Positions 9,167 to 40,133 of a stretch of 40,914 bases of DNA are shown piece after piece. The stretch lies in sequence record SRR22947727_548, one strand, 5' to 3'. The notes beneath the pieces are model-generated. The model was not told the DNA's origin. It was given only the letters and a program-made list of their open reading frames with translations, and did not search any database. Position 1 is the stretch's first letter. Every line of letters begins with the position of its first letter. The position numbers and the translations under genes are program-made.

Positions 9167-10504
9167 TCATTGTATGTTTGTTATCTTTCCTTGTCCTTTG
9201 AAGAATGAACAGCCAACTTCACCAATTGTTCGGTAAAGCGCACGGTTGCCCAAAGTTCCCACACCAAATGGATTTCCGTTAGCGATACCATCCTCAAAGT
9301 ATTGAGTTGGTTTCATAACAGATAGCCACAAATGGTCTGTATCAAGGAAAAGCATATCACTTAGTTTGGTTGAAGCCGCACCTGTTGAAGTCATGTCTTT
9401 AACAGGAATCAATGGAATATCGTAGTAGGTTGCCACACGGAAACCAACTTCTTGTCCCTTTGTTCCACGAACCCCATTAACCGTAGGAACAATTTCCTTT
9501 CGGTCCATGAATCGCTCTTGGCTTTGCAATAGGTCAGCAAGGGCTTGAATGGTATCATATCCGGTTAGAATAACCTTTGGTGAACCACCAGCAAGTCGCA
9601 AGTTGCGAACCATGTTGTTTAGGAGAGTTAGCGTCAATTGACGAACATTTCCAGCAGTGTAATCAGTACCGAAATCAACTTCTGCATCAAGGAAAGAAGC
9701 GGCAGTAAATCGCTCACTGCCGTAAATCTTACCTAATGCGTTAGAAGCGGAGGTTGCATCAGTAGCAAGAACTCCATCATCAATTAGGAGTAATTCTGCT
9801 CTTGATGTGATAACCTTCAACAATGACGAATAGTTGTTTCCAATGTTAGGCATAGCGGCAACTTCACCGTAATGTTCCAAAGGCATAACAAGCATCTTGT
9901 TTTGAACTTCTGCGTGGTGCTTACCCATGTCTTCTCGCATTTGCGCTCGAATATCTCCAATTCCATCGTCAATTTGTGCCATTTCCATAGCAAGTTCGCT
10001 GAAATCGAATTGATGTGCAATGACCTTTGGACTCATGTTTAATTGAGCATAGGTTGGAGCAATTGGGCCTAATCCATCTTGTGCAGTTGAAAGGGCCGCA
10101 TTCTCAGGAACACCACCAATCATGTCTGCTCTTGGAGAATCTGAACCTAATTCAGCAAGGTTTTCTGTTCCGCTTGCATCAACAGTGAATAAGTTTCCAC
10201 TTCCACCAGCAGGTCGGCTCTTAAGAACTCGCCATCCACTCGAAGAATAGGGTCGCTTTGCAATCATTGATAGTGCGTTCACTTCTCGGTTTAGCATAGA
10301 CCAAACCTTTTGTCCATAAACGATGTTGTATAGTGCTGAAACATCACCAACGGCTGAACCGGACAATGCCGGAGAACCGTCGTGACCGGTATGAATACCG
10401 CCAACCATTCCTGCTTGCTTCAAAAGAGCATTACCAGCAGGTAAGTTGTTAATTCCGTATGTTTGTGCTTCTAAATCTCGTATTGTGTTAATATATCCTG
10501 TCAT
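9167..10504 (-). CDS. Major capsid protein (HK97 fold)
   Basis: 445 aa directly after the protease/scaffold. GGVPENAA, PKVIAHQFDFSE, GGSPKVILT, YYDIPLIP and GQGKITNI segments match archaeal head-tail virus MCP style; AGGTGA RBS. Confidence 0.9.
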   Translation of the reverse strand: MTGYINTIRDLEAQTYGINNLPAGNALLKQAGMVGGIHTGHDGSPALSGSAVGDVSALYNIVYGQKVWSMLNREVNALSMIAKRPYSSSGWRVLKSRPAGGSGNLFTVDASGTENLAELGSDSPRADMIGGVPENAALSTAQDGLGPIAPTYAQLNMSPKVIAHQFDFSELAMEMAQIDDGIGDIRAQMREDMGKHHAEVQNKMLVMPLEHYGEVAAMPNIGNNYSSLLKVITSRAELLLIDDGVLATDATSASNALGKIYGSERFTAASFLDAEVDFGTDYTAGNVRQLTLTLLNNMVRNLRLAGGSPKVILTGYDTIQALADLLQSQERFMDRKEIVPTVNGVRGTKGQEVGFRVATYYDIPLIPVKDMTSTGAASTKLSDMLFLDTDHLWLSVMKPTQYFEDGIANGNPFGVGTLGNRALYRTIGEVGCSFFKGQGKITNIQ

Positions 10505-10516
10505 CTTAAATCACCT

Positions 10517-11752
10517 TCAAATGTTGTTCACCATCTTATGAATGTCGGACCATTCCATTTCTGCAAGGTCGTTCATTGATGGGAGGGTAATAGTTGATTC
10601 TTCTTGAGCCTTAATGATTGAATCCTTCTCGGCTGTCAAAGACTTTCGCAATTGAGTAAATTCTTCCTTAAGAGAAGAAATTTCACTTGCAGCATCATAT
10701 TGTGACTTTGCAAGAATGTTCTCACGGTTGTTGCGTTCCGAAGCAAATCGGGACTCAAAGGACTTTCGGAGGTTATCGTAAGCAAGTGCTTCGAGTTGTT
10801 CCTCACGGAAAGCGGCGTAAGCCTTTTCAATGTTTGAATTGCTCAAATCAAGAGAATCAAATTCATTGTTGTTGAATGCCTTAACAACAGGCATATCCGA
10901 AGAAGTTGGCTTACCGTTGTTAATCACGATTCGGTCAGCAGGTTCTCCAATTTGGTTTCCTGCGCCATCAAGAGTACGAAGGTATGCTTTGTCTGCTCCT
11001 TCATATTGTTGATATTCGGAAGATTCCATTGTTTCTTCTTCTTCTTCATCATCAGCCATTTCAGAATAATCTCCTGCTTCCTTTTCTGGCATTCGTGGAT
11101 TATCCATCATTTCGTCTGCTGATTCCTTCATATTATCGTCGTCTTCTTCCTTACGAAGCATATTAACTTCTTCGAGAAGAGTATCTAACTCGCTCAGTGC
11201 TTTTTCTAATTTTTCGCTCATTTTTTCACTTCCTATATCTTGTTTTAAAATATCGAATTTCGCTTCGGGGTTAATTCCTTTTTCGCATATTGTCACTTCA
11301 TGGAGTTCTAACTTACTTATTTCGTTATATTCCCCTAATTCGTTGTGGCTTTTCTTTACTTTTTGTAATGCCTGTCCACCAATACTAAATGACCTTAATG
11401 ACCCTTTGCGAATGTTTCTTCCTACTTCTTTTGCTTTTTCAATGTCGTCCCTTAATTTAATTACAACAAAGAATCCCACATCATCTACTTCGGATTTCCA
11501 TAATTTTCCGTTTTTATCTCTATATGAATCAACAACTTCTCCAACTTGAACATTTGAATGATTTGTCATTACATTTCTAAACTTTGAGTCTTCCATAAAC
11601 TTTTTTACTGATTCTTGTAATGCTTTTAATGTAATCAAATCGTTTTGTTTATCCACGATTTCAATGCTTGCATATCCTCCAATCATCAAGTCGTCACTGC
11701 CCTTTAGAATGGTGAAATCATCATTCCTTGTTGCCATAACGCTTGTAGCCAT
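10517..11752 (-). CDS. HK97-type prohead protease fused to an acidic scaffold domain
   Basis: IGGYAS..IVDKQND, catalytic H (TNHS), S (SFSIGG) and HEVTIC...NPEA motifs, followed by an acidic coiled-coil region. ATG at 11752 follows GAGG. Confidence 0.9.
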   Translation of the reverse strand: MATSVMATRNDDFTILKGSDDLMIGGYASIEIVDKQNDLITLKALQESVKKFMEDSKFRNVMTNHSNVQVGEVVDSYRDKNGKLWKSEVDDVGFFVVIKLRDDIEKAKEVGRNIRKGSLRSFSIGGQALQKVKKSHNELGEYNEISKLELHEVTICEKGINPEAKFDILKQDIGSEKMSEKLEKALSELDTLLEEVNMLRKEEDDDNMKESADEMMDNPRMPEKEAGDYSEMADDEEEEETMESSEYQQYEGADKAYLRTLDGAGNQIGEPADRIVINNGKPTSSDMPVVKAFNNNEFDSLDLSNSNIEKAYAAFREEQLEALAYDNLRKSFESRFASERNNRENILAKSQYDAASEISSLKEEFTQLRKSLTAEKDSIIKAQEESTITLPSMNDLAEMEWSDIHKMVNNI

Positions 11753-11781
11753 GTTCCTCAAACGCTCCTACTCACTTTGAG

Positions 11782-11792
11782 TATATAATAGA
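11782..11792 (-). promoter_or_regulatory. Candidate archaeal TATA box (TATTATATAC) for the protease-MCP transcript
   Basis: Located in the intergenic gap about 30 nt upstream of the protease start. Confidence 0.4.
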
Positions 11793-11798
11793 CTCGCA

Positions 11799-14321
11799 TT
11801 ATTTCTTCGGAAGGGGCAATTTGTTATGCCTATCTTCATAAATATTCCATAATCCAGCATCTTCTTTTTCATCAGCAGGGCTTTGTTTATATCCGGACCA
11901 TGCTAACCACATATCCTTATTATCTACCTTTATCTTTCTTATGTTAAATTTAGTTTCAAATTTATTTCCTTCCAAGAAATACTCATGATAACCATGTTTT
12001 TGCACTCCTAACCTAACTTTACCTTCATCAATGATTTTTCTCTTAGATATGTTATTCGCCACCATAGCAGGGAATTTACCTGCTTTACCAAACAACTCAA
12101 ATATATCACCATCGTCTTCTAAATCAATTAACCAATTAATTGATTCATCTTTTAGTTTAATAACTAGATTTAAATTATCATCATCTCTTAGATATAATTT
12201 AAAATCACCTTGTTGATATTCCTTTGGTGTTTTATATTCCTTAAGAATATCGCTTTCTTGCATTATCTTATCATCTTCAGCATAAAGTTTCTTAGTCTTT
12301 TCATCATAAGAAATACCATCTCTTTGTTTCATCCAATCTTTAAGTTTATCAAACTTACTTTCAAGAATGTCTTCGTATAACTCTTTATGGTTTTTAACTA
12401 AATAATTATGTAGTTCTTTGATTGTTTTTGGTCCGGTTGTCTTCATGTGTTGAAAACCAGCAACAGTCAATCGAGATTGCTTAGTTTTCATAATTTCTTC
12501 CGCTTGTGTTTTCCAAAGGTCTAAATCAACTAATGCGTTTTTAGCCATAAGATTATTTTCTTCAAAACCATAAATAATAAATCCATCCATATCTCCTTTA
12601 ATTAAAATTGAAGCCTCACCGTGAATATGGTCTGTGATTTGAATACCTTTTTCCAATGCTTCAACCTTGTAATTTAATTCCTTTTTCTCATCACTTGCTA
12701 ACAGTTCAAGAGTAATCACTTTGTCTGGGTGTCGTGCTTCAGGTATCTCAATGACCTTAGCAGAATTGACAATAAAGCGTTCCCCATCTTTCTTTACGCT
12801 GTCTATTTTGACCCGTACTATGCTTCCTAAGTCAGCAGATATTTTGGTGTTAAGAGCCTTTCCAACAACCATATATGTTTTACCTTCCATATCTTGATAG
12901 TTCTTACCTTCGCCTTCTATTGGTCCTGCTCCTAATGTATAAGAATAATTGCCATTAGATGATTTTTTATCCAATACTTTTAAATCTAAATCAACAAAAT
13001 TCTTCCACTTAATCCATTTAGGATTCTTTTTTGTTCCGACATAATAGGTTGAAGTGGAATCTTTGATAACAACCCCTTCTGCGGTTGGCATATCCATAAT
13101 AGTCTTCGAGTATTCTTCTATGTCTTTGATTGAATCTGCTAAACGAGTATCTTTCTTTGAAGGGAAAGTAAGCATCTCACTAGAATGAATAGAATAATTA
13201 TTAAACATTAATTGCATTCTTTGGTCTAGTCTATCTTCAAGTAATGACTTCTCATTATGTCTTAATAAATCAAACATATGCATTTTTAATGTTCCTTCTG
13301 AATCTTCTTTATCAAAAAGATGAGAAATTGTTTTTGCTCTATTTTGTGCTTCATCCCCATTAAAAAGAATCAAAGAACCATCTAATATGCAATCTCCAAA
13401 ATGTTTCTTTTCCATTTCTTTAACTTGTTCTTTACATTTGGAGGTAATGTCTTTTTTATCGAAGGTATAAATTTTTATTTTTTTATCAATTTTATGCAGT
13501 TGTATTCTTAAACCATCGTATTTTTCTTGAACATAATATTCTCCACTGAATCCCTTAAGTTCATTCATATCTTCAATATCGAAAATTCTATACATTGGTT
13601 TATTAGGAATAATAAAATCACTTTGGGCTTTTTCTTCTGTGGATTTTTCTTCTTTTGATTTCTTAACAGGTAAGCCTTCTATTTCCTCAAGTTCTTCCCA
13701 ATTATCTTTATCATTCTTTGATAAGAAAATTAATTCTAATATAGACATGGCTGCCTTTACTTTAGATTTAACTTTGTTTGAGTCTTTTCCATCACCATAA
13801 TGCTCGATAATATAGAGGTCTATGTCGTCCACTTCTAGGTCAAGTCCCTTAAGACCCCCCGTAATATCGTCGGGTTCTATGTCTTTAACCGAGTAAATGT
13901 CAGGAGATAGCGTTTTATCATCTACCCTTATAGCATAGTGCAAAAATTTAACCATATTCCCTGTTGAAGATAGCAATGCTTCAAGGACATTACCTTTAAA
14001 CTTTTTAGCAAAGGGGTCGTCTATTGATTCAGACGAATAGCGTAATGATTTAATGCCTTCAAATATTTTTTCTGCATTTTGAGATTGGGGGTCTTTTACA
14101 TCATCTGCTTCTAAATCTGAATTATCAATAAAATTTTTTAATTCATTAGATAGTGCATTAGAATCTTCATAACTCTCAATTAAATTATCAATAGCACTTC
14201 TCCATTTAGAACCGTACTCCTTTGGGTCGGTTCGTGCAGAAAGATAAGCCACTCTTATTTTTTCAAATAAGCGAACAATTTCATCAGATGTGGTCTTATC
14301 CTTTTCTAAAAGGTAAGCCAT
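11799..14321 (-). CDS. ATP-dependent DNA ligase-like multidomain protein
   Basis: Motif I QEKYDGLR, III ILDGS, IIIa MFDLL, IV EGVVIKD, V WIKWK, then an OB-like region. Extra N- and C-terminal domains are present. Confidence 0.85.
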   Translation of the reverse strand: MAYLLEKDKTTSDEIVRLFEKIRVAYLSARTDPKEYGSKWRSAIDNLIESYEDSNALSNELKNFIDNSDLEADDVKDPQSQNAEKIFEGIKSLRYSSESIDDPFAKKFKGNVLEALLSSTGNMVKFLHYAIRVDDKTLSPDIYSVKDIEPDDITGGLKGLDLEVDDIDLYIIEHYGDGKDSNKVKSKVKAAMSILELIFLSKNDKDNWEELEEIEGLPVKKSKEEKSTEEKAQSDFIIPNKPMYRIFDIEDMNELKGFSGEYYVQEKYDGLRIQLHKIDKKIKIYTFDKKDITSKCKEQVKEMEKKHFGDCILDGSLILFNGDEAQNRAKTISHLFDKEDSEGTLKMHMFDLLRHNEKSLLEDRLDQRMQLMFNNYSIHSSEMLTFPSKKDTRLADSIKDIEEYSKTIMDMPTAEGVVIKDSTSTYYVGTKKNPKWIKWKNFVDLDLKVLDKKSSNGNYSYTLGAGPIEGEGKNYQDMEGKTYMVVGKALNTKISADLGSIVRVKIDSVKKDGERFIVNSAKVIEIPEARHPDKVITLELLASDEKKELNYKVEALEKGIQITDHIHGEASILIKGDMDGFIIYGFEENNLMAKNALVDLDLWKTQAEEIMKTKQSRLTVAGFQHMKTTGPKTIKELHNYLVKNHKELYEDILESKFDKLKDWMKQRDGISYDEKTKKLYAEDDKIMQESDILKEYKTPKEYQQGDFKLYLRDDDNLNLVIKLKDESINWLIDLEDDGDIFELFGKAGKFPAMVANNISKRKIIDEGKVRLGVQKHGYHEYFLEGNKFETKFNIRKIKVDNKDMWLAWSGYKQSPADEKEDAGLWNIYEDRHNKLPLPKK

Positions 14322-14326
14322 TCAAA

Positions 14327-14557
14327 TCACTCTTTCTTGACTTTACCGCTTGTAAAACTTTCTCCGGCTAAACCATACCCTTCCTTCTTTCGGGTTTGAT
14401 TTGTAATCTTTGATGCGTCTTGTACCTTTGGTCGTTTAATCTTTTCAACAGTAGGCATTTCATCCTTTGTTAATCCATCACGAAGGGCTTTGACTTCTCT
14501 TGCTTTTTGAATAGTTAATTCAATTATTTTTTCTTCTCTTGTCACTTTTTCTGGCAT
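14327..14557 (-). CDS. Small basic hypothetical protein
   Basis: Likely start is ATG 14557 (MPEKVTREEK), overlapping the upstream stop by 1 nt. Confidence 0.6.
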   Translation of the reverse strand: MPEKVTREEKIIELTIQKAREVKALRDGLTKDEMPTVEKIKRPKVQDASKITNQTRKKEGYGLAGESFTSGKVKKE

Positions 14558-14796
14558 TATTGTCCACCTACCTTTTCGACCATTTTGTGAATATCGGACC
14601 ATTCCATGCTTCCAACATCACCAACGGATGAAGAACCAACTCCACCGTTATTCATTTTTGGACTTGGGCTTTGGGCAACAACTAAGCCAGACTTCATCAA
14701 TAAATTATCTTGATGATAAACAGTCTTTTCTAAATTTTCAATCTTTTCTGTTAATGCCTTTAGAATGGCAAGTAATTCAACATTTTGGTCAGTCAC
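14557..14796 (-). CDS. Small coiled-coil protein carrying the scaffold C-terminal motif MEWSDIHKMV
   Basis: 79 aa with an exact 10-residue match to the protease/scaffold C-terminus. Confidence 0.75.
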   Translation of the reverse strand: MTDQNVELLAILKALTEKIENLEKTVYHQDNLLMKSGLVVAQSPSPKMNNGGVGSSSVGDVGSMEWSDIHKMVEKVGGQ

Positions 14797-18747: not shown

Positions 18748-20391
18748 TTAACCAACTCTTCTTTCTGTTCTTGAATCAACATTTTGATTACCTGCTTCTG
18801 CTGGCAATCCGGTCATGCGCTTATCCGGCCCTACTTCGTTCCTTGCTTTATTCCTTGTGGCCGGTGGATTTTCTTGGGGCTTAGAACCGCCTCCTTGTGC
18901 CATTTCTCTCATATTTTCATCTAAATCTCTTTGGTCTAAATTAGAACCTGCTAATGGGTCATTCTGTATTGGTTCTTCTCCTTCTGCCGGTGGTTGCTCC
19001 GGTTTGGGTTCCGGCTTTTTGAATGTAAATTGACCATCTTCATCCATATCAACTTCAAATCCTAAGTTTTTAATCGAAGCGGCAATATTAACTTCAATCT
19101 CTCTTTTACGAAGACCTGCAATTTCGTCTTCTTCTTCCGAAGGAGGTAATTTCAAATTCCAATCAGTAATACCGAATTGTTTTGTTAAGTATGGGAAAAC
19201 ATAATTGTTGTAGACATTTTGTGCCATTTGAACAGCACGATTTGTCACAAGTATTTGCATACCTTCATTATTCAATCCACCACTTGCTGTACTATCAGCC
19301 ATGAATACTTTGCTAACCCCATAGAAAGCAGAAATTCTATCTCTTAAATCATCCTTTACTGAAATGTAATCCATCTCTTTAAGACTGTCCATGAACTTTA
19401 TCCATTCAACAGCACCCTTTCCATTCTCGGCTTCAATACCCATAACAGGAATAAAGTGAGGGTCTGCTTCCATCTTTTCTTTAACGCCTCTCCAAAAGGC
19501 TCTCATTGAATCCATGTTTCGAGTTTGAACCGCCAATAAACCTCTTGGCATTCTGCTCTTAGTGTATGCGGAATTAACATAGTTCTCCATAGCAATAAGA
19601 GTCATAATATGATTGTATAATGTAATTACAGGAGAGAAACCATAAAGCCTACTCGGACTGTATTTACTAAAGTGCAAAACTTCTCCTTCTAAGAAATATT
19701 GGTCTTCCCCATTTGCTCTATTTACAAAGTGTACGGGCTTCATATCGGAGCCACAGGTTTCACAAGTAGCATAAGGTTCAGTAGCCAACATATTTCTATG
19801 ATGAACACAAGTAAATCCTTTTGTTCCCTTTACACCATCTTCATCAGCATAAATAAACATAGTCACAGGGTCGCCACGATAGATTTCTTTAATGCGGTGC
19901 ATTCGTATTTTACCATTACCATCCAAAAAGTATTCCTTTACTAGAACAATATAGGCATCATCCATAGTATTCAAATCATCCTCAAGTTCTTTTAATACAT
20001 CAATAAACAATTGTTCGGAAGGATTGACATATCCTTCCAAAAACTTCTCAGCGAATTGTAGTTGTTTAACATCTGGAACTCTTAAATCCTCAGATTCACA
20101 ACGGGAACATTGTTGAACAGGTCTTTTGTGTTTCTTTCCACAATTGTTACATATTGCTTCAAATGCCTTTTCCCAGACATATCCTCTACGATATACTTCT
20201 TGCTTCAATTGAGTAATGCAAGTCCTAACAATAACAGACTGTTGAACCATAGAATAAATGATGGGTGCTGTCATCATATAGTTATTCTGCCTTTCTTGAA
20301 TACCCATATTGAATATCTGTCTATCCGCAGGTTTAGGAGTAGAACGCCTAAACAAATTAGTAAAAGAGAATCGTCGTCTTTCTTCAGCCAT
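18748..20391 (-). CDS. Portal protein with zinc-ribbon insertions
   Basis: 547 aa after TerL. EVLHFSKYSP..LYGFSP, PRGLL, KEMDY and ISAFYGVS are HK97/SPP1-like portal motifs; two C4/C3H clusters are inserted. Confidence 0.9.
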   Translation of the reverse strand: MAEERRRFSFTNLFRRSTPKPADRQIFNMGIQERQNNYMMTAPIIYSMVQQSVIVRTCITQLKQEVYRRGYVWEKAFEAICNNCGKKHKRPVQQCSRCESEDLRVPDVKQLQFAEKFLEGYVNPSEQLFIDVLKELEDDLNTMDDAYIVLVKEYFLDGNGKIRMHRIKEIYRGDPVTMFIYADEDGVKGTKGFTCVHHRNMLATEPYATCETCGSDMKPVHFVNRANGEDQYFLEGEVLHFSKYSPSRLYGFSPVITLYNHIMTLIAMENYVNSAYTKSRMPRGLLAVQTRNMDSMRAFWRGVKEKMEADPHFIPVMGIEAENGKGAVEWIKFMDSLKEMDYISVKDDLRDRISAFYGVSKVFMADSTASGGLNNEGMQILVTNRAVQMAQNVYNNYVFPYLTKQFGITDWNLKLPPSEEEDEIAGLRKREIEVNIAASIKNLGFEVDMDEDGQFTFKKPEPKPEQPPAEGEEPIQNDPLAGSNLDQRDLDENMREMAQGGGSKPQENPPATRNKARNEVGPDKRMTGLPAEAGNQNVDSRTERRVG

Positions 20392-20402
20392 ACACTACAC
20401 CC

Positions 20403-20558
20403 CTACTCGTTTGCAGGTTCCTCTTCTGTTATATACTCTTCGACAGTCATTTTGACGGGCCTACCTTTTTTAAGCCAACATTGCCTACAAAAACCAAAAG
20501 GCATTAAGTTTCGTGAAGATGTAGTATAGCATCGTCCACAATACATAAATCCCATCAT
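20403..20558 (-). CDS. Small zinc-finger protein (51 aa, below ORF-track cutoff)
   Basis: Manual translation MMGFMYCGRCYTTSSRNLMPFGFCRQCWLKKGRPVKMTVEEYITEEEPANE. GGAGTG RBS, ATGA overlap with the upstream stop, and it fills the gap. Confidence 0.7.
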   Translation of the reverse strand: MMGFMYCGRCYTTSSRNLMPFGFCRQCWLKKGRPVKMTVEEYITEEEPANE

Positions 20559-21928
20559 ATCACTCCATCGCTTTTTAAAATAGTACCAACCTGTTCCATA
20601 GAATCCATAACAGACATTTTACAATTGTCTTTGTATTTTTGAATATTATCTAAGTAAATGCCTTCCTTCAACCAATCAAAACCTACATGGTCTTTGTGAT
20701 TCTCCCACTTCATTAACTTGAAAATTTCATCACATCTTGGCTTGTACCATTCTTCTTTCTTATATGATTTTTTCATACGAATAAGTTCAAGTAATAGTTC
20801 TGCATTTCCTTTCTTCAATCTGAAATGAGGTAAGCACTTAGTTAGTAAATCTGTGACATGGGTTTGTGAATAAAAATTTAATCTTTGAACAGGTCGTGTG
20901 TCTTGTGGTGACTTCTGATTTAAATGTAATTTACCAAAACCAATAGATTTATGCATTTCTTCCATAAATGCACGACCTCTATCTCCCGTAGCAATTAGAC
21001 CTACTCTTGGATTATGGTTTCTATCCATAGTAATATATCCATCGGAATCAATAAAGGCGGCAGTGTAGGCCCAAATGTTCTTTTTAATTTCAGTTGGCAT
21101 TTTGTAATACCCACCATCTACAACAGCAACATCTAATTTTTTAACCATTTTTGAAATCATATTAGTAGTAGTTCCTTTATTTAATTGGTTAGGCATTCTT
21201 TCATGTAGTTGCTTTACTCCAATTCCGGGCTGTTTTCTAATTTCACTTTCAATAAAACTAAGTACCTTTTCCTTCTTTGATTTAGCAAGAGATTGGTCGG
21301 AAATCTTTTTAATTTCTGCTCTAAAGTCTTTCTTGGCTAAACGACAAGCCTTTTCCATAGAGGAATAATCTTTACCATAGACCATATCAGTTTTCTTTAA
21401 GTCATGTTCCCAAAACTTACAAAGAGAATCAACTACCTTTCTTCTAGTCTTTACATCATCAATTTTGTATAGTTTCAATAAATCCTTTTCATTAAATCTC
21501 ATTTTAAGAAGAGGCTCTTTGTATGGATTTAACCAATAAATAGATTCAATACACTTTGAAATATGTTCAGAGTAGCCATCAATAATTGTATCAATTGCTT
21601 TAGCCATTCTTACTCTATCTTCTCCCTTAAGTTGTCTTCTTGCCCTACGCATTTTTTTAACCAAGTCTGGGATATTTTCTCCATCAACAACATATTGATT
21701 TGGGAATGAAGTTAATTGCTTTCTTGCTTCTGTGGCATTAATGTTTAAATTCTTAGAAAGAGTAGTAATTGCTTCATAATCTGACATAACATAGTCAGTG
21801 ATACCTTTGTTTAGTTCAATACCAACATCATTAAGGGCTTGAACAACGGGCTTCCTTTCTTCTTGTAGTTCCTCTAACTCTTCAATTTCATCTTTTGATT
21901 CAATTAAATCTTGTTCTGTAACCATCAT
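20555..21928 (-). CDS. LAGLIDADG endonuclease-domain protein with long helical/HTH N-terminal region
   Basis: AYTAAFIDSDGYI motif and LPHFRLKK downstream helix; winged-HTH-like IRKQPGIGVKQLH segment. Confidence 0.75.
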   Translation of the reverse strand: MMVTEQDLIESKDEIEELEELQEERKPVVQALNDVGIELNKGITDYVMSDYEAITTLSKNLNINATEARKQLTSFPNQYVVDGENIPDLVKKMRRARRQLKGEDRVRMAKAIDTIIDGYSEHISKCIESIYWLNPYKEPLLKMRFNEKDLLKLYKIDDVKTRRKVVDSLCKFWEHDLKKTDMVYGKDYSSMEKACRLAKKDFRAEIKKISDQSLAKSKKEKVLSFIESEIRKQPGIGVKQLHERMPNQLNKGTTTNMISKMVKKLDVAVVDGGYYKMPTEIKKNIWAYTAAFIDSDGYITMDRNHNPRVGLIATGDRGRAFMEEMHKSIGFGKLHLNQKSPQDTRPVQRLNFYSQTHVTDLLTKCLPHFRLKKGNAELLLELIRMKKSYKKEEWYKPRCDEIFKLMKWENHKDHVGFDWLKEGIYLDNIQKYKDNCKMSVMDSMEQVGTILKSDGVI

Positions 21929-21935
21929 AACCACC

Positions 21936-23366
21936 TCAAAAATTCATACCTATTACGCCACTATTCCGCTTATACTTGTTAGTGGTAGGCGGCTCAAACA
22001 GTCCTAAATCGTCAAGCAGTATGAAGGTTTCACTCATGGTATGTGTGGCCGCATTTGCTAACGCAAGGCTCATCACCATGTCGTCATGCGCCCCTATACC
22101 CTCGAATTTTCCCTTCTCGGTGATAGCAAACATAGACAATTCTTCAAGTAATGTCATTGAAACTCTTCTGCTTTCTTCATTGCCATAAGGTAGGTTAATC
22201 TTTTTATTTTCAAAATTCATTTGAAGACTTAGAATAATCTCTTCTTTCTTCTTACGAGTAGTATTGAAGTCGTGAACATTTAAATCACTAACATTCCTTA
22301 ACTCTTGCGTAAAAGATTTAGCGAATGTATTTGTTTCAAAGAGAACAACTTCGGGATGGAACATCTTTCCAATTAACCTAACCTTTTCTATATTCTCCCT
22401 AAACTCAACATTCTTAGAACGGTCAATGAATACAATAGTTTTATTATCGTGTTCATCAACTTCTAGAACTGTAATAACATTGTAGTCGCCATCTGTTGAA
22501 ATAGCAGGGTCCACACCTACATAATACTTGTAGCCTTCACGACGATGCGGCTTGAGAATATGTTCTTTACTCTTTGCTAATTCTAAATAGTCAGGATTGA
22601 ATAGAGAAGTACCTGTTGATATAGGAACACATAAATATTCCCGTGTGAACATTAAAGAACCAACTTCAGCCTTTCTTGCTATTAGGGCATCATAGTCCCA
22701 TCTTTCAGGCCAAAGGGGTTCATTGAGAGCATTGAAACAAGGATATGTTCGGACTGTATATGCAGGATTCTCTTCGAGTTGTTGATAAATATCTGTATAA
22801 CTGAAGGGAGTTCCAATAACTCTCAATGAAGCGGTGTGGTGAAGTGTTGGAATCATGTCACCATAAAACCAATCTGTGACCTTTTGAATACCTGTCATGC
22901 TAAACTCTTTCAAAGGGTCGTCAATAATAATCTCTTGAGGGTGAAGACCACGAATCTGTGAGCCAACGGAACGCTCAAGAATTTGATTACCATTGGTAAG
23001 GGTAATGTTTCCAATAGCCCAACCCCTTGCAGGTTTAAATTTCTTTAACATAGGATGATTAAACATCTTGTCAATATCTCTCATGTGAACCATTGTCTGT
23101 TTTTGGTTAGATGAAATGTAAAGCATTTGATAAGGTGGCTCTTGGAAAATTAAATTCCAAACAACCCAACTGTGCATAAATACAGATTTTCCGTGGTCAC
23201 GGCTACAAACAATGACAGTTCTTTGTGTATCATTCATTAACTCTAACCATTCTTGTTGATACTTGGGAAACATAAAACCTAGAACATTTTGGAAAAAATA
23301 TGGAAAAGAGTTTTTGGATAACTCCATATCCATTTGATGTTCAAAATTAAATGCTTCTACTTCCAT
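21936..23366 (-). CDS. terL: Terminase large subunit
   Basis: Walker A SRDHGKS, Walker B IIIDD, GTP coupling motif, nuclease GVDPA and HDDMVMSLALA. Confidence 0.95.
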   Translation of the reverse strand: MEVEAFNFEHQMDMELSKNSFPYFFQNVLGFMFPKYQQEWLELMNDTQRTVIVCSRDHGKSVFMHSWVVWNLIFQEPPYQMLYISSNQKQTMVHMRDIDKMFNHPMLKKFKPARGWAIGNITLTNGNQILERSVGSQIRGLHPQEIIIDDPLKEFSMTGIQKVTDWFYGDMIPTLHHTASLRVIGTPFSYTDIYQQLEENPAYTVRTYPCFNALNEPLWPERWDYDALIARKAEVGSLMFTREYLCVPISTGTSLFNPDYLELAKSKEHILKPHRREGYKYYVGVDPAISTDGDYNVITVLEVDEHDNKTIVFIDRSKNVEFRENIEKVRLIGKMFHPEVVLFETNTFAKSFTQELRNVSDLNVHDFNTTRKKKEEIILSLQMNFENKKINLPYGNEESRRVSMTLLEELSMFAITEKGKFEGIGAHDDMVMSLALANAATHTMSETFILLDDLGLFEPPTTNKYKRNSGVIGMNF

Positions 23367-23371
23367 AATAA

Positions 23372-23734
23372 TCACACATTATCTACTGTAAAATTAATTT
23401 TTCTTTTCATAGCCTTAGTAAATCTACGCACAGTATCAGAAATATCTTGAGTTAAAGAATCATTAAGGGGCCATTCGTCCATGTAGTCTACTAACTTGGA
23501 AAGTTGCCTATATACATAAGTAAGTGTATCATCATCGTAATCTTTGTCTGCAATTACTTTTCCTAATGCAGATAATCTACCATTAAAACTATGTGTTTCA
23601 TTTTTACTTCCCCAACTGTACGGGGTAAGGTCATTAAATTTTTGAAATCCAGCATCTACTTTGCGGTATAATTCAATATATAAATCTGTTATGTCTTCAT
23701 CAGTATCAAATTTTAATATGTTGAACCAAGTCAT
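23372..23734 (-). CDS. WxxILK-tagged hypothetical protein
   Basis: 120 aa, MTWFNILKF. Confidence 0.75.
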   Translation of the reverse strand: MTWFNILKFDTDEDITDLYIELYRKVDAGFQKFNDLTPYSWGSKNETHSFNGRLSALGKVIADKDYDDDTLTYVYRQLSKLVDYMDEWPLNDSLTQDISDTVRRFTKAMKRKINFTVDNV

Positions 23735-23738
23735 AATA

Positions 23739-24287
23739 TCAAATCCAAACTATCCAAGAATCGTTCTTTTTAATATCCCAACGATTATTATATCTATCAG
23801 AAGTTTTGAAGAAATTTAAGACTTTATCCGGTATAACTTCATGCGTTTCAGGTTGTTCGCCAGACATAAATCCAGCATCTTTGCCCATCTGAGTATATCC
23901 TGCAATCTTAGGTATTCCTTTTAAATCAGCCAAATACCTGACTCTAATCTTTCCAGAAGCATCACCTTTAAAATGTTTTGTTCTGTTTCCTCGGATTCCA
24001 CCAATATAAGCAAATTTCTTTCCTCCTTTTCCTTGACGCAAAGCATAACCACCCACAGCACCAAGAACAGGCTTTCCTTCAACTTTCTTAATTAGACCAA
24101 ACCATGTATCTACGGGATAATTTGAAAGCCCCCTACTGCTACGGGCTTGCATTTGCAATTCAGGATTACTAGCATTCCATAATTCTAGCATTTCACTTTC
24201 GTTATTCAACTTAACTAAAATTTCTTTTTTATCTCCTAGAAGTTCCAAGAGTCTTGGGTGTGATTTAATTAAGTTCCACCAACTCAT
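23739..24287 (-). CDS. WxxILK-tagged hypothetical protein (possible GNAT-like fold)
   Basis: Likely start is ATG 24287, MSWWNLIKS. The fold guess from the beta pattern (VLGAVGGY, AYIGGIRG) is weak. Confidence 0.65.
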   Translation of the reverse strand: MSWWNLIKSHPRLLELLGDKKEILVKLNNESEMLELWNASNPELQMQARSSRGLSNYPVDTWFGLIKKVEGKPVLGAVGGYALRQGKGGKKFAYIGGIRGNRTKHFKGDASGKIRVRYLADLKGIPKIAGYTQMGKDAGFMSGEQPETHEVIPDKVLNFFKTSDRYNNRWDIKKNDSWIVWI

Positions 24288-24288
24288 A

Positions 24289-24777
24289 TCATCTACCCCT
24301 ATCATACGACCTTTCCAAGTCGTTAGCGTACTTAAGCATATCTCTTCCTTCTCTTATTCTATTTCTACTATTACGCATAAGTAGTTCGGAAGTAATTTTC
24401 ATCATCTTAATAGTCTTAGAAAATTGTTCTTCAAGGTTTTTATCTAAGTCACTAGAGTATTTTCTTTTGGTTTGTATTTTTCCTCTTTCAAAGTCATTTA
24501 TTACTCTTTGAACACTAGTGTTAGTTAGCCCCTGTTGTAAAGAACCCTGTGAGTACATTTCCCAACCGCCTTTAGAATAAAAATCGGCAAAGAAACTATA
24601 ATACTTTTCAAATTCTTTTTCTGGAACTTGTATTGGAATTGTAGATAGTTTTTCAGGTTTGGATTTCATTGGCCTACCTAAGTTTCTTGTAGTTGCTTTA
24701 CGGTGTAGCCAAAGATTAGGAGTTGTTGCTTTTTTACCAACTAAGGCTGTTGATTTTAATAGAATTTCCCAACTCAT
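24289..24777 (-). CDS. WxxILK-tagged hypothetical protein
   Basis: MSWEILLKS. Confidence 0.7.
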   Translation of the reverse strand: MSWEILLKSTALVGKKATTPNLWLHRKATTRNLGRPMKSKPEKLSTIPIQVPEKEFEKYYSFFADFYSKGGWEMYSQGSLQQGLTNTSVQRVINDFERGKIQTKRKYSSDLDKNLEEQFSKTIKMMKITSELLMRNSRNRIREGRDMLKYANDLERSYDRGR

Positions 24778-25151
24778 CATCTGTCCCTCTTAGAATCTAA
24801 TTCTTTTTTGGCTCTCTTTTGCTTTTCTCTAAGTTCATCCATAGCAGTTCGAGGCTTAGGTTTATCTTCTAATTTTTCAAAGTAATCCATAATCTCATCT
24901 ATTTGCTCTTCTGTTGGATTAGAAGACATAAACTTTTCACCCAATTCTTGAACCTCTTTAGAGTCTTTGCCATATTTAGAAACATTCATTCTTAACATGG
25001 CTTTGAATTGGGGTACTAATAAAGCCTTTGCCTTTTTAGCCTCCCTTTCCATGATTCTATCTACTTTTTTCTGTTTTTCAGGGCTGGCATTTCTATACCC
25101 TCTTCCCTTTTTATAATCAGAATCCTTCTTTAAAACATCTTGCCAACTCAT
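24777..25151 (-). CDS. WxxILK-tagged basic hypothetical protein
   Basis: 124 aa, MSWQDVLKK. Confidence 0.75.
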   Translation of the reverse strand: MSWQDVLKKDSDYKKGRGYRNASPEKQKKVDRIMEREAKKAKALLVPQFKAMLRMNVSKYGKDSKEVQELGEKFMSSNPTEEQIDEIMDYFEKLEDKPKPRTAMDELREKQKRAKKELDSKRDR

Positions 25152-25160
25152 AACAATTCC

Positions 25161-25478
25161 TCACAAAAATTTATAATATCTCACATTTTTATATCCTATA
25201 AATTTGCCATCAGGGGCAAATCTCCGTTTTGCTGTTTTAATTTCTAATAGATTTCTATTCTTGAGCATACTTGTGATTCTATTTTTTATCCTATCTGATG
25301 GAACACCCTTATGTCGTTTAGCATACTTGTTTCTTACATCTTCTATGAATGTATCAAATTCGTTTGAATTTAGGACTTGCCCTTTTAATAGTTGGGCTTC
25401 TTGAATAGCAACCTCTTTTAGAAAGTCGTGGTCAAGCCTCCTAGCACCCCCCCGCTTAATTACTTTTTCCCAACTCAT
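25161..25478 (-). CDS. WxxILK-tagged protein, possible winged helix
   Basis: 105 aa, MSWEKVIKR; helices followed by a beta hairpin. Confidence 0.7.
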   Translation of the reverse strand: MSWEKVIKRGGARRLDHDFLKEVAIQEAQLLKGQVLNSNEFDTFIEDVRNKYAKRHKGVPSDRIKNRITSMLKNRNLLEIKTAKRRFAPDGKFIGYKNVRYYKFL

Positions 25479-25876
25479 TTCTCTCCCCTCATTTGGTTTT
25501 CTTTAGAAGTCTTATCATCATCAATTGGACCGCCCTTAGCCCAAGTATAGCAAGTTCTTGCTGAATGACATTTGAAATCGTGCATCCAACAGTAGCCTAA
25601 TCGACCATCTTCATCTGTATTTAGTGGCATACATTCGTCCATTCTTGGAGATATATCAAATGCAATACAATTACTGCAATTAGATTCCTTAGCAACCTCA
25701 GCAGTAGTTTTCCACTTCTTAGCGTATTCTTCCCAATACTTTTCGTCGCTTAGATTGAGAGGCCCGTATTGAATATGCTTTTCTTTAACCGCCCTATCCC
25801 TATTCTTAGTATTAAGTTTCAAATCTTGAGTCGCTCTAGGGCAAGACAGTTCTTTTAGAATAATCTTCCAACTCAT
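25475..25876 (-). CDS. WxxILK-tagged Cys-rich metal-binding protein
   Basis: 133 aa, MSWKIILKE; CSNC...GYCWMHDFKCHSARTC. Confidence 0.8.
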   Translation of the reverse strand: MSWKIILKELSCPRATQDLKLNTKNRDRAVKEKHIQYGPLNLSDEKYWEEYAKKWKTTAEVAKESNCSNCIAFDISPRMDECMPLNTDEDGRLGYCWMHDFKCHSARTCYTWAKGGPIDDDKTSKENQMRGEK

Positions 25877-26181
25877 TTCTTTCGACCTCTTTGTGGCTTA
25901 GGAGGTAGTCTTCCCCTCTTTTGTTTCTTTTTTCTTTTAGTGGGCTTATCAGTTTCTGCGGCATTAGGATTATTTCTCCTTCCAGCGACAAATTCACTCA
26001 TAGCGTGTTCTTCTTCTCTTCCACCACGAAGGCTATTTTTTCTTTCCCAATCCCTTTGTCTGCGTTCTTCTTCATCACGCTTTTTTTGCCTTCTTAGGTA
26101 AGCATTATGCCTTTCAATTTTTGCTCTCTTAGCCGCCATTTTTTTAGGATTATATTCCTTTAGTACATCTTTCCAACTCAT
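25873..26181 (-). CDS. WxxILK-tagged highly basic protein
   Basis: 102 aa, MSWKDVLKE; R/K-rich. Confidence 0.7.
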   Translation of the reverse strand: MSWKDVLKEYNPKKMAAKRAKIERHNAYLRRQKKRDEEERRQRDWERKNSLRGGREEEHAMSEFVAGRRNNPNAAETDKPTKRKKKQKRGRLPPKPQRGRKK

Positions 26182-26492
26182 GCTGTAAATGGCCCCCTTC
26201 TTTTACTGCCTTTTTTTGGTTCATGTGTGTATAAATCTCCATGTTTATGATGATTAATAGTCCCTCTTCTAACTAAAGCGTTGAGAACCCTTATGAGATT
26301 TTTACGGTCAGTAATGCTCTTAAGATTCTTCATACCCAAAGCACCACCTTCTTTAACAATTTCTGCAAGTATTTCTTTTTCTATTTGTCTATCGGTCTTC
26401 ACTGCTTTTTTTGTTCTTTCAGAACATTCAGCACAACCGCAAGACATTTTTTCTCCGCTACAATGCCCTTTTAATATATCTTTCCAATTCAT
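26178..26492 (-). CDS. WxxILK-tagged protein with Cys cluster and winged-HTH-like region
   Basis: Likely start is ATG 26492, MNWKDILKG; HC...CGCAEC and LIRVLNALVRRGTI. Confidence 0.7.
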   Translation of the reverse strand: MNWKDILKGHCSGEKMSCGCAECSERTKKAVKTDRQIEKEILAEIVKEGGALGMKNLKSITDRKNLIRVLNALVRRGTINHHKHGDLYTHEPKKGSKRRGPFTA

Positions 26493-26776
26493 TAACAATT
26501 CCACCTTCTTCTTGCTGCTTTGGCTTTTTCACTATAAGTGCCATCATCACGCTTAAATCCTCTTGACCTTGAGCAGAAATTCTTGCGCCTTTTAGCGGCT
26601 TTACTACCACGCTTCAATTTACTTGGTTTAGTGGTGACAGGAGCCTTTAGATTAGCACCTGTTTCACGCTTAAATTTAGCACGACCCTTAGCACTTAATC
26701 CTCCGGTCTTTGCGTGAATTTTTTTATTATATCCCTTAAAAGGTTTTTTCTTTAGAACTTCTTGCCATTCGTTCAT
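26492..26776 (-). CDS. WxxILK-tagged basic protein (GGLSAKGR...RRKNFCSR...RRRWNC type)
   Basis: 94 aa, MNEWQEVLKK. The domain resembles small basic proteins I recall from marine phages. Confidence 0.8.
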   Translation of the reverse strand: MNEWQEVLKKKPFKGYNKKIHAKTGGLSAKGRAKFKRETGANLKAPVTTKPSKLKRGSKAAKRRKNFCSRSRGFKRDDGTYSEKAKAARRRWNC

Positions 26777-27186
26777 GATTTTCCCTTCCTTCTTGGATAA
26801 CTTTTACATTTGGCACAGGTCGCCCTGCATCTTTGCTTTGTTCCTTTTGAAGCACTTTCACGGCCACAGGGCTTTACTCCCTTTTTATCATCTTCACAAG
26901 ATTGACAAGAAACCCAACCAGAAACCGTTTCACCATTTTCACCTTCGGCTTCTTGTTCAAACCATGTTTTCAAGGGATTAGCCTTCTTTACAGAATTGCC
27001 CCAATTAGCCGCACCAACATTTCGGCAACGAACTAAAGCCCCACTTCCATAAGCAGAAGGCCATTTCTTATATCGGCTTCTTACTTTGTAATAACAAGCA
27101 TCCTGTTTCTTTCCAGACCTTTGAGTTTTTCTTCTGCGAAGTTTCTTCTTCTTCGCTTTAACAATATCAAACCATAGTTCAGTCAT
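26773..27186 (-). CDS. WxxILK-tagged basic Cys-rich protein (DACY..V..RY..WPSAY.SGALV.CR type)
   Basis: Likely start is ATG 27186, MTELWFDIVKA, after an AGGTGA RBS. Confidence 0.75.
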   Translation of the reverse strand: MTELWFDIVKAKKKKLRRRKTQRSGKKQDACYYKVRSRYKKWPSAYGSGALVRCRNVGAANWGNSVKKANPLKTWFEQEAEGENGETVSGWVSCQSCEDDKKGVKPCGRESASKGTKQRCRATCAKCKSYPRRKGKS

Positions 27187-27190
27187 AGTA

Positions 27191-32038: not shown

Positions 32039-32221
32039 TCATCTCCTTAATCTTTGTTTTATCTCTTTTCTATATTCTCTCAATGCTTCCAAAGCAGTAT
32101 TTTTATTTCCCGAGTAATCAATAGTTTTGAAAGTTTCTAATTTTTTAATCATTTCTAAAAGAAGTTCCATATCTTCTTTACTTCCAGTAAATTCACTTTT
32201 TAAAAAATCTTCCCAACTCAT
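32039..32221 (-). CDS. WxxILK-tagged small protein
   Basis: 60 aa, MSWEDFLKS. Confidence 0.7.
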   Translation of the reverse strand: MSWEDFLKSEFTGSKEDMELLLEMIKKLETFKTIDYSGNKNTALEALREYRKEIKQRLRR

Positions 32222-32232
32222 TGTAATTTCTC

Positions 32233-32481
32233 CTAGAATGACCTTTCTAATTTTTGTTTAAATTCTTCTAGAGTTTTTTCTATTTTATCAATAGTGCCTT
32301 TTTGTATGTTTTTAATTATTTTTCTTGCCTGTTCTATTGGTAGGTCTGTTTGTTTATTCATTTCAATAGCGGATTTTTCTATATCATCATACAGTCTTTC
32401 TAGCATTTTTTCTATCTTTTCAATTTGTCCGAGATAAAATGAGTATTCTTCCTCTCCCTTAACTATGTCTTCCCAACTCAT
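32233..32481 (-). CDS. WxxILK-tagged coiled-coil protein
   Basis: Likely start is ATG 32481, MSWEDIVKG. Confidence 0.7.
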   Translation of the reverse strand: MSWEDIVKGEEEYSFYLGQIEKIEKMLERLYDDIEKSAIEMNKQTDLPIEQARKIIKNIQKGTIDKIEKTLEEFKQKLERSF

Positions 32482-32498
32482 TGTAATCTCTCCTGCAT

Positions 32499-32930
32499 TC
32501 AAATTTCAACAGAAACATATAACTTTCCATTAGAATACTCATCAACTTCATAACTTACTTTGAATATAAACGCACCGCTTTTATCTTCCATAGGTTTTGG
32601 TTTAGTGCCGTCTAACCGAATTATAATATCTTTTTGTTTGAAAGATTTAACAATATTGTTTGGTTTGTATGTTCCTACATTTTCATCCATAACATCTATT
32701 CTTCCCGAAGGTTTAACTCTTATAGCAAACTCTTCAGTAAGATAGGACGAATCATCACCTGTTCCTACATTACTTACTTCAATGTCAATATTAAAATCAT
32801 CCATGTATAGCCAAAACTCACCTTCGCCAAAATTTAAATCTTTGGCGATTTCTTCAGCAATTTCTTCTTCATATTCTCCACCGCCACTAAACGATTTTCC
32901 TTTTGCTTTTACTATTTTTTTCCAACTCAT
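32499..32930 (-). CDS. WxxILK-tagged acidic beta-rich protein
   Basis: 143 aa, MSWKKIVKA. Confidence 0.75.
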   Translation of the reverse strand: MSWKKIVKAKGKSFSGGGEYEEEIAEEIAKDLNFGEGEFWLYMDDFNIDIEVSNVGTGDDSSYLTEEFAIRVKPSGRIDVMDENVGTYKPNNIVKSFKQKDIIIRLDGTKPKPMEDKSGAFIFKVSYEVDEYSNGKLYVSVEI

Positions 32931-33586
32931 TGTAATCTCTCCTGCATCTTTTTCTTAATGTCGAGCCAAATCTCAGGATTGTTCTGTGCTAACACTTCTT
33001 GAACAACCTGCATTTGTGCGACAATAATTGTATCTTGTCGCTTGTGAATAAGTTTGCCTTTGAACTCAAGAAGGTACTTTAGCGACTCCCGTACTTCTTT
33101 TGCGAGTTTAGTAAGACTATCAATCTCTCTTGGTTCTAAGTCTGTATTAAGGAACAAATCATTTAATTTATCATCTAAGCGTTGAACATTCGCACTCAGC
33201 AAATCAATCTCATTTACTTCCTTTTTCGCTATCATGGTGGCCGCAGATTGCTGTACCAATGGGGCCAAGTGGTGCTTCATGTGGCGTTGCACCTGCTGTT
33301 TCGAGATGCCTAATGCTTGAGAAATAGCGTCACTTGTGATATTACCGTTGGAAAGGGCTTCCTCGTAATGTTTTCGCATTGGGTCCACACATAACTTGCA
33401 TTTTGGATTACTGCTGTTTGTGTATTCTCCCATGTGATTTCTTTGATGTTGGGCCGCAGTGCCGCTTCTCCAATTGTTCCTTGAATCTAAATCGTCACAA
33501 CTCACCATACCTTGCTCAAGTGCGGCTTCAAGTTCTTCCCTTTGGTCATGCTGACAAAAGGCACATCGCTTACGAGTTATGGTCAT
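32927..33586 (-). CDS. Putative terminase small subunit / zinc-finger-HTH DNA-binding protein
   Basis: Two tandem CxxC...H-x3-H units with HTH-like cores (ISQALGISKQQVQRHMKHH), followed by oligomerisation-type helices. Confidence 0.55.
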   Translation of the reverse strand: MTITRKRCAFCQHDQREELEAALEQGMVSCDDLDSRNNWRSGTAAQHQRNHMGEYTNSSNPKCKLCVDPMRKHYEEALSNGNITSDAISQALGISKQQVQRHMKHHLAPLVQQSAATMIAKKEVNEIDLLSANVQRLDDKLNDLFLNTDLEPREIDSLTKLAKEVRESLKYLLEFKGKLIHKRQDTIIVAQMQVVQEVLAQNNPEIWLDIKKKMQERLQ

Positions 33587-33590
33587 TTTA

Positions 33591-34652: not shown

Positions 34653-34788
34653 CTTTGTCACCTCCGTATTTTATGTTGAATTTAGATGGGTCGTTGCCGT
34701 GACCCCCAAACGCTACACCCCCGCTCTCCTTATTCAAGTTGCCGCAAGCATCACAACATGAGCCTTTAATTATATTCCACCATTTCAT
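34621..34788 (-). CDS. WxxILK-tagged small Cys protein (55 aa, below ORF-track cutoff)
   Basis: Manual translation MKWWNIIKGSCCDACGNLNKESGGVAFGGHGNDPSKFNIKYGGDKDAEEDEESSV; GGAGG RBS. Confidence 0.7.
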   Translation of the reverse strand: MKWWNIIKGSCCDACGNLNKESGGVAFGGHGNDPSKFNIKYGGDKDAEEDEESSV

Positions 34789-36607: not shown

Positions 36608-36612
36608 AAAAA

Positions 36613-37299: not shown

Positions 37300-37304
37300 G
37301 TAAA

Positions 37305-38773: not shown

Positions 38774-38774
38774 A

Positions 38775-40123: not shown

Positions 40124-40133
40124 AATAATCACC

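Follow-up and report, generated by a model that had tools for sequence, protein, structure and literature searches.

A decapeptide shared by the C-termini of a protease-scaffold fusion and a 79-residue head-module protein of a magrovirus, and its partial likeness to a recurrent N-terminal octapeptide

Of the archaeal viruses that inhabit the surface ocean, magroviruses count among the most abundant, and neither they nor their hosts have been cultured. The stretch of DNA analyzed here, 40,914 nucleotides of the sequence record SRR22947727_548 (the window), has a GC content of 34.5% and all of its sizeable genes on the minus strand. In its head module, two separate genes lying 2.8 kb apart encode the same decapeptide, MEWSDIHKMV. 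One of them codes for a protease-scaffold fusion of 414 amino acids (aa), which terminates in LAEMEWSDIHKMVNNI before the stop codon, and the other for a protein of 79 aa, which terminates in GSMEWSDIHKMVEKVGGQ (positions in Table 1). The identity, noticed in an original prediction made from the sequence of the window, was confirmed at both sites; the decapeptide does lie near both C-termini, although not literally at the ends as had been stated, with three residues following it in the fusion and six in the 79-aa protein. A similar octapeptide, termed here the N-tag, opens many other genes of the window.

The two coding 30-mers were compared, and four third-codon differences were found, all of them synonymous (GAC/GAT, CAT/CAC, AAG/AAA and GTG/GTC). 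In 36 genomes holding both genes, the mean number of differences between the 30-mers was 4.44 within a genome versus 4.58 between genomes, and each gene showed its own codon habit: the scaffold used AAG for Lys in 25/36 genomes and GTG for Val in 21/36, and the small protein used AAA for Lys in 31/36. Since the copies were about as different within a genome as between genomes and the codon habits were gene-specific, selection on the peptide, and not gene conversion, keeps them alike; gene conversion between the 30-mers was ruled out by this comparison. The earlier statement that the peptide rather than the DNA is conserved is borne out, and the selection is strong in both proteins.

Relatives of the fusion were collected from IMG/VR, where 228 were found; the best 80 are 65–94% identical to it and lie on contigs of up to ~96 kb, and five of these 80 loci are cut by the contig end. 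The motif was kept in all 75 scaffolds with a complete 3' end and in 44 of the 46 small-protein homologues present in related loci, with the family consensus M-x-W-x-[DE]-[IV]-H-x-[LM]-[AV]. Moreover, two sister magrovirus lineages (scaffolds ~38% identical, GC 0.44–0.54) both retain the scaffold peptide together with a matching small protein. The first has MSW[DE]EVH.LA in the scaffold and M[ST]W..IHEMA in the small protein, and the second MSWDDVHR[LM]A and M.WDEIHAMA, respectively. The co-conservation across related genomes that the original prediction had proposed to look for was thus observed.

More distant homologues were also inspected. The search of 1.84 billion representative proteins returned 1131 scaffold homologues, and the loose motif [MLA][SDTEN][WYF].[DEN][ILVM] was found within the last 32 residues in 24 of the best 150 of these 1131; in the same 150 proteins this corresponds to 24 matches in 4,800 tail residues versus six in the 68,237 other residues. 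When 34 scaffolds of 28–90% identity were aligned, the only positions past the protease domain conserved in at least 90% of them were P394 and W404. The I/V of the C-terminal peptide is conserved as well in homologous scaffolds, but the Lys (+5) is variable, with N, Q, A, S, R and T being seen, so that the expected conservation of W, I and K holds for the first two residues and fails for the third. Taken together, these comparisons solidly support the view that the C-terminal pair is a functional shared element under strong selection at the level of the peptide.

The protease-scaffold fusion was characterized by profile searches and structure prediction. Residues 26–176 match Pfam family PF04586 (Peptidase_S78) with 39.2 bits versus a cut-off of 21, and the protein also matches PHROG families of head maturation proteases. 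Alignment with HK97 gp4 by hhalign gave a probability of 91% and paired H68 and S126 with H65 and S114, which we take to be the catalytic residues of gp4 (segments TNHSN versus FFNHK and RSFSIGG versus EGMSVGF); H68 and S126 are invariant in the 34 aligned scaffolds. The protease domain is therefore homologous to that of gp4, but gp4 has no scaffold extension and no M-x-W-x-[DE]-I-H at its C-terminus. The C-terminal part of gp4 is reported, in work of Duda, Oh and Hendrix from 2013, to be its encapsidation signal. AlphaFold2 (AF2) models of the fusion and of the small protein were of modest confidence (mean predicted local distance difference test score 65–69). In the fusion, the protease was predicted at residues 26–173, an acidic disordered region at 213–304 and a long helical hairpin at 308–388; beyond the hairpin come a short helix and a linker containing Pro, and then the terminal helix 404–413, of which the decapeptide would form the core. 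The gene lies directly upstream of the major capsid protein gene, so a protease domain and a predicted helical scaffold are found in one polypeptide encoded beside the capsid gene, as in the UL26-like fusions of herpesviruses. When the fusion, the small protein and a profile of the capsid protein were searched by sequence against solved structures, nothing significant was obtained, and the matches were limited to insignificant GCN4-type coiled coils (E 0.2–0.7).

The 79-aa protein was predicted to consist of a helix at residues 3–27, a disordered linker and a terminal helix at 66–77. It is homologous along its full length in three magrovirus lineages and, judged by this conservation, is a core gene of the head module. 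In 48 sequences, W66 and I69 are invariant. A segment in the middle of the protein (N31-L33-M34-K35-G37-V39-P44-P46) is even more invariant than the C-terminal peptide, and the protein therefore probably has a second partner. For this protein, 82 protein clusters were obtained, none of them credibly named, and no Pfam or PHROG family was found. The layout of N-terminal helix, disordered linker and terminal helix fits a small scaffold or core protein, probably a coiled coil, in agreement with the mini-scaffold that had been proposed. A complex of the capsid protein and the 79-aa protein modeled with ESMFold2 scored 0.00 versus a mark of 0.34, a value that is uninformative on binding because custom alignments were not used and the partner fold is uncertain. 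An open reading frame (ORF) of 91 aa listed at 14327–14602 overlaps the end of the gene; its true start is more likely at 14557, where an ATG preceded by AGGTGG overlaps the TAA stop, giving a 76-aa protein (MPEKVTREEK...) that is conserved beside the small-protein gene in relatives.

The surrounding genes identify the virus. Magroviruses have been described as tailed viruses of marine group II archaea with a ligase gene within the structural module (Philosof et al., 2017, PMC5434244), and since a DNA ligase gene lies inside the structural module of the window, the window is a magrovirus. Haloarchaeal tailed viruses are the closest relatives in the phage database (~25% identity, and 23–25% for the major capsid protein). 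In the structural module of magrovirus groups A, B and D, the nuclease gene is reported to be a LAGLI-DADG homing endonuclease (PMC5434244); the nuclease-like region of the 459-aa protein in the window is HNH-like, unlike that type. A Lys/Glu-rich protein of 1116 aa (15158–18508) separates the portal from the small-protein gene. Neither this protein nor a 684-aa protein of the tail region (2918–4972) had a BLAST match with E of 1e-4 or lower in six related genomes, in which their neighbors are conserved; either these two proteins evolve very fast or matches are hidden by the masking of low-complexity sequence. Among the tail genes, a 222-aa protein (6507–7175) gave weak matches to P-loop GTPases (Roc, MMR_HSR1 and SRPRB), all under the Pfam cut-offs; its conservation is 74–79% among four relatives, falling to ~30% in the sister lineage.

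Table 1. Features of the window discussed in the text, and thermosome genes of related genomes (positions of the latter refer to the genome named).
Feature	Position	Strand	Notes
N-tagged gene among tail genes, 68 aa	6296..6502	minus	tag MWQNILK
Major capsid protein, HK97 fold family	9167..10504	minus	Pfam SU10_MCP 29.3 bits (cut-off 24.1); PHROG major head protein
Prohead protease-scaffold fusion, 414 aa	10517..11761	minus	Pfam PF04586, PHROG
Decapeptide of protease-scaffold	10529..10558	minus	core of predicted terminal helix 404–413 (AF2)
ATP-dependent DNA ligase, 840 aa	11799..14321	minus	between small-protein gene and protease gene
Small head-module protein, 79 aa	14557..14796	minus	GTG start; N-helix, invariant segment, variable linker, putative C-terminal docking helix
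Decapeptide of 79-aa protein	14578..14607	minus	predicted terminal helix 66–77 (AF2)
Head-module protein p122, 122 aa	14793..15161	minus	starts MTWDYYEEGKDIILK
Portal	18748..20391	minus	Pfam + PHROGs
459-aa protein with HNH-endonuclease-like region	20555..21934		between terminase and portal
Large terminase	21936..23375	minus	Pfam + PHROGs
First N-tagged block	23372..27216	minus	directly upstream of large terminase gene, same strand
First block, canonical tags, nine genes	starts 23734, 24287, 24780, 25151, 25478, 25876, 26181, 26492, 26776	minus	
First block, variant tag MTELWFDIVK	in 26773..27216	minus	
Second N-tagged block	32039..40816	minus	no Pfam or PHROG function
Second block, canonical tags, thirteen genes	starts 32221, 32481, 32930, 34788, 35371, 35954, 36607, 37299, 38773, 39209, 40123, 40409, 40816	minus	
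Thermosome genes	G001:57078-58517; G003:25436-26881; G002:24662-26083; G009:45709-47103; G014:80892-82313		G002 gene split in two pieces

The N-tag pattern, M-x(0-2)-W-x-x-[ILVMF]-[ILVMFH]-[KRQ], opens 23 of the 56 genes called in the window, including the three examples quoted in the original prediction (MEWKDILK at 40409, MSWEDIVK at 32481 and MNWKDILK at 26492), and the consensus is M-x-W-x-[DEN]-[IV]-[LIV]-K. N-tagged genes were also found in three complete relatives (18/142, 11/122 and 26/146 genes). In a set of 81 tags, Trp is present in all 81, D34/N18/E8 at +2, I60/V13/L5 at +3, L55/I16/V9 at +4 and K76 at +5. The strict pattern W.[DE][ILVM].[KR] gave 14 matches on the coding strand of the window and none on the other strand; ten of them stand directly after a start codon, four within the last 16 residues and none internally, and in 1000 within-protein shuffles the mean was 0.84 and the maximum five. 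With the loose pattern, 32 matches were obtained, all on the coding strand (24 N-terminal, three C-terminal and five internal).

The codons of the tag were then considered. Those for Ile, Lys and Asp follow genome usage and Leu at +4 spans all six codons, which indicates that the N-tag is selected at the level of the peptide. In almost every tag the first base of codon two is A (Ser is AGT in 22/28), a bias that fits an ATGA start/stop overlap with the upstream gene. The tag was retained in 11 of 12 cross-genome best matches of 29–87% identity, and it survives where the remainder of the protein has drifted to 29–43%. Beyond the tag, the proteins are unrelated to each other, so by sequence the N-tag is a short N-terminal peptide on otherwise unrelated proteins, as is the T4 capsid-targeting sequence (CTS). 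None of 57 tagged proteins from four relatives reached a Pfam cut-off, and the sole Pfam pass among the tagged proteins of the window was the DUF6321 domain encoded at 26492..26776. A homologue was detectable in three other complete genomes for only eight of the 23 tagged window proteins. Separately, no relative of P0043 was found in the viral collection, and P0026 gave three weak loci only. The isoelectric points of tagged proteins could not be set usefully against those of untagged ones, since the untagged set was inflated by crude gene calling.

The exact coding pattern of MSWKDI[L]K was searched for in large collections. In IMG/VR it was found in 83 stretches, and 74 of the 80 loci fetched carried two or more tags, all of them on one strand. 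By contrast with this viral set, 596 Gb of prokaryote genomes gave five matches, four of them outside ORFs. The sole match opening an ORF (L345, position ~896 on the minus strand of a contig from a Lachnospiraceae metagenome-assembled genome) starts a 370-aa protein with MSWKDILKNN and is probably due to chance. A term search of the main texts of three magrovirus papers found no mention of either motif.

Next to the packaging genes, a block of at least 17 kb consists of tagged genes to ~70%, and others lie in the structural modules. The tagged gene among the tail genes has counterparts at a similar position in related loci (14 tagged ORFs, 7.5–9.0 kb downstream of the small-protein gene, in 46 loci). 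The head module of three relatives also holds two to four tagged genes, which are situated between the small-protein gene and the large protein on the portal side. Three sister-lineage orthologues of p122 start with a canonical tag (MSWQSILK, MTWQEILK) and are 54–62% identical to p122 from residues 24/25 to 115–122.

Within the tag blocks, several further features were observed. Four tandem paralogues lie at 34790–37308 in the second block, and seven copies are present in G003 (L091:499-4419); this fast-diverging family of ~140–230 aa has 16–36% identity between copies, and all members open with MWW[DNEK]I[LI]K, after which come a run of conserved polar residues and two Cys that are invariant. 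The adjacent N-tagged genes at 26492–27216, coding for proteins of 94 aa (with DUF6321) and 147 aa, match positions 356–430 and 246–312, respectively, of phrog_727, a PHROG family of unknown function, and may be one longer protein in other phages. Several genes of the tag block finish in DWRK or SWWK before the stop codon (at junctions such as 35373–35389), and the TGG-AGG codons of these ends appear, from the translations, to be the Shine-Dalgarno of the next gene, in which case the C-terminal Trp would be a by-product of the overlap and no tag. The DWRK endings of the paralogues were rejected as C-terminal tags because, as read from the translations, they coincide with a GGAGG-like stretch ~7–11 bases before the next start. 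Two other candidate C-terminal tags were also discarded: ...EIWLDIKKK... in a 219-aa winged-helix protein is part of a conserved fold and is present in untagged lineages too, and SWLEIIRG at the end of a 356-aa protein was matched in G001 only. The untagged 868-aa and 746-aa proteins of the tag block were rejected as a tag receptor, being poorly conserved even within the lineage.

The arrangement was compared with known systems, as far as these are described in the sources cited. In herpesviruses, the protease-scaffold UL26 and the scaffold UL26.5 have a common C-terminus, which attaches to the major capsid protein and so keeps the core inside the procapsid (PMC12474303). As in the magrovirus, a fusion of maturation protease and scaffold is accompanied by a second scaffold with the same short C-terminal element; however, UL26.5 is made in frame from within the gene for UL26, which renders the identity automatic, whereas the magrovirus has two separate genes sharing only the last ~10 residues, kept alike by selection, and a protease of the S78/HK97 family. 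In addition, the herpesvirus C-terminal tail is a protease site, whereas cleavage of the magrovirus tail is putative. The C-terminal pair can be described, by analogy, as a herpesvirus-style arrangement built from two separate genes, a known principle in a new form.

Two bacteriophage systems are also similar. The scaffold of 80alpha and the SaPI1 protein CpmB, an alpha-helical dimer of 72 aa, share a homologous C-terminal helix-and-hook that binds the N-arm of the capsid protein (PMC5644958). CpmB resembles the 79-aa protein in size and layout (N-helix, linker, C-terminal helix), and on the predicted models the latter is likewise small and helical, with a C-terminal helix like the one of the main scaffold. 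The 79-aa protein is encoded by a conserved core gene of the virus, whereas CpmB comes from a parasite island and makes the capsid smaller by competing with the scaffold, and the 80alpha motif, RIIK, is unrelated in sequence to that of magroviruses. In T4, the CTS, an N-terminal stretch of ~10–20 residues on several unrelated internal proteins and Alt, directs entry into the prohead core, from which the proteins are later ejected with the DNA (PMC9958956, PMC7411985). The N-tag, too, is short, stands at the N-terminus and is found on many unrelated proteins, a few of which are encoded in the head module. The differences are that T4 has a handful of such proteins versus 11–26 per magrovirus genome, that its protease belongs to another family and that the CTS is described as binding the core and not the shell.

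Scaffold C-termini also bind the capsid protein in P22 and others (summarized in PMC12749128), and the decapeptide sits where the coat-binding elements of the known systems lie, as the original prediction had noted. Since the extreme C-terminus of the scaffold holds the capsid protein in herpesviruses, 80alpha and P22, the peptide may be a shared procapsid-docking helix. We regard it as somewhat probable that the decapeptide is the core of a short amphipathic C-terminal helix which docks proteins inside the assembling procapsid, with the N-tag possibly being capsid-targeting. By analogy, the docking partner would be the major capsid protein. Two separately encoded head-assembly proteins, the protease-scaffold fusion and a small second scaffold or core component, would present the helix on flexible linkers, and this common handle would allow both to be incorporated into the procapsid together. 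The protease would then digest the internal proteins and the capsid would mature; this cleavage after assembly is inferred.

Several observations weigh against a general capsid-docking role of the C-terminal peptide. In the small protein of L077/L078, Phe replaces Trp, so that the two peptides differ there, and the motif is absent from the C-termini of haloarchaeal HVTV-1 and of HK97 gp4, which makes the C-peptide a feature of one clade and not of S78 proteases generally. The helix could also have a partner other than the capsid protein: it may bind the portal or the protease domain (as a substrate or an inhibitory tail), or pair the two proteins with each other; the second, more invariant segment of the small protein points to at least two interaction surfaces, and the herpesvirus scaffold is described as binding the portal too, its C-terminal tail being itself a protease site (PMC12474303). 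This explanation is considered unlikely, given the binding of the capsid protein by the extreme C-terminus in the three systems named above and given that a dozen portal subunits are insufficient to explain a motif on the bulk scaffold. An exact identity of ten residues in two otherwise unrelated proteins might also be left over from a recent duplication or gene conversion, with no function in common. Such an origin is extremely improbable in view of four synonymous differences in 30 bases, the 36-genome comparison of differences and gene-specific codons described above, and the conservation of the pair in lineages down to ~38% scaffold identity.

The claim that the N-tag mirrors the decapeptide and mimics the scaffold helix was found to be plausible but weaker than first put. 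Both peptides are terminal and share M-x-W-x-[DE]-[IV], and a matrix derived from the 81 N-tags placed the C-peptides at rank ~11–23 of 87,598 non-N-terminal positions, with a few unverified internal positions among the ranks above. In each of the ten tag-bearing records, the C-terminal peptide system is present in the record itself or in its lineage, but the converse does not hold in the sister lineages described below. On the other side, His at +4, near-invariant in the C-peptides, occurs in 0/81 N-tags (L, I or V instead), and the hydrophobic residues at +6/+7 of the C-peptide are not conserved in the N-tags. The two sister lineages in which the C-terminal pair is retained gave no match to the N-tag DNA pattern in 10/10 records (three of these records are at least 90% complete), and a looser protein-level scan for tag starts gave no candidates in G009 and six in G008, distributed over both strands. 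In one lineage that bears tags (GC ~0.44), the scaffold peptide is SWGDIHNLAR, with N at +5, and the shared Lys is therefore a coincidence of the window lineage; a co-adaptation of N-tag and scaffold through K at +5 was rejected, as the tag-bearing lineage has N or T there and the lineage with R at +5 has no tags. Finally, 11–26 cargo proteins per genome would be many for a virus of ~95 kb. Because the His is missing and the tags are absent from the sister lineages, mimicry is plausible rather than proven in spite of the tagged head-module genes; by sequence the N-tag is a terminal motif related to, but distinct from, the C-peptide.

These same observations, together with the presence of N-tags in a lineage with other residues at +5 to +7 of its scaffold peptide, could mean that the N-tag has nothing to do with the capsid and docks to another hub (the virus thermosome, another viral protein or a host factor), the likeness being a shared helix start. 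The tagged proteins are fast-evolving and of unknown function, a profile typical of host-takeover or counter-defense genes. A thermosome (group II chaperonin) is encoded in all five complete genomes tested and is markedly more divergent in the tag-bearing lineage, with family-model scores of 67–159 bits in three tag-bearing genomes versus 352–410 in two tag-free ones. However, it is present with or without tags, so that its presence alone explains nothing; some tagged genes are neighbors of the small-protein gene within the head module, and others directly precede the terminase gene on the same strand; the C-peptides rank high under the tag matrix; and the near absence of the narrow MSWKDI[L]K pattern from prokaryotes gives no sign of a copied host motif. 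Docking to another hub is a serious possibility that we nevertheless do not expect to hold. The position of the tag, always at the start codon, and its A-biased second codon with AGT for Ser, which fit ATGA overlaps, would also suit a signal in the nucleic acid, such as a region for the initiation of translation, the RNA operator of a translational repressor or the boundary of a recombination cassette. This is very improbable, since the substitutions are conservative in the protein (I/V/L, D/N/E, K/R) with Trp fixed, the codon usage is that described above and only a Shine-Dalgarno-like GGAGG stands upstream. Capsid targeting by the N-tag, which like the T4 CTS would load proteins into the head, is the leading candidate, although we stop short of calling it probable. 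With still more reserve, it may be proposed that one magrovirus clade turned the first half of the scaffold docking helix into a portable N-terminal address label, and that the virion delivers a large, rapidly changing set of proteins with its DNA.

The shared C-terminal helix provides a concrete handle on the assembly of the magrovirus head. Whatever its partner, the N-terminal octapeptide brings together into one functional set dozens of proteins per genome that cannot otherwise be annotated, and it could serve as a simple bait with which to identify the partner. In encapsulins, too, cargo proteins of diverse kinds dock by short terminal peptides to the inner face of an HK97-fold shell; encapsulins are cellular compartments without DNA, and their cargo peptides are extended, not helical, and have another consensus. 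If the octapeptide is a capsid address label, it could be used to load foreign proteins into archaeal virus capsids. If the label is portable in the sense proposed, it would represent a much-expanded archaeal counterpart of the internal-protein system of T4, in which pre-made proteins enter the host with the DNA.

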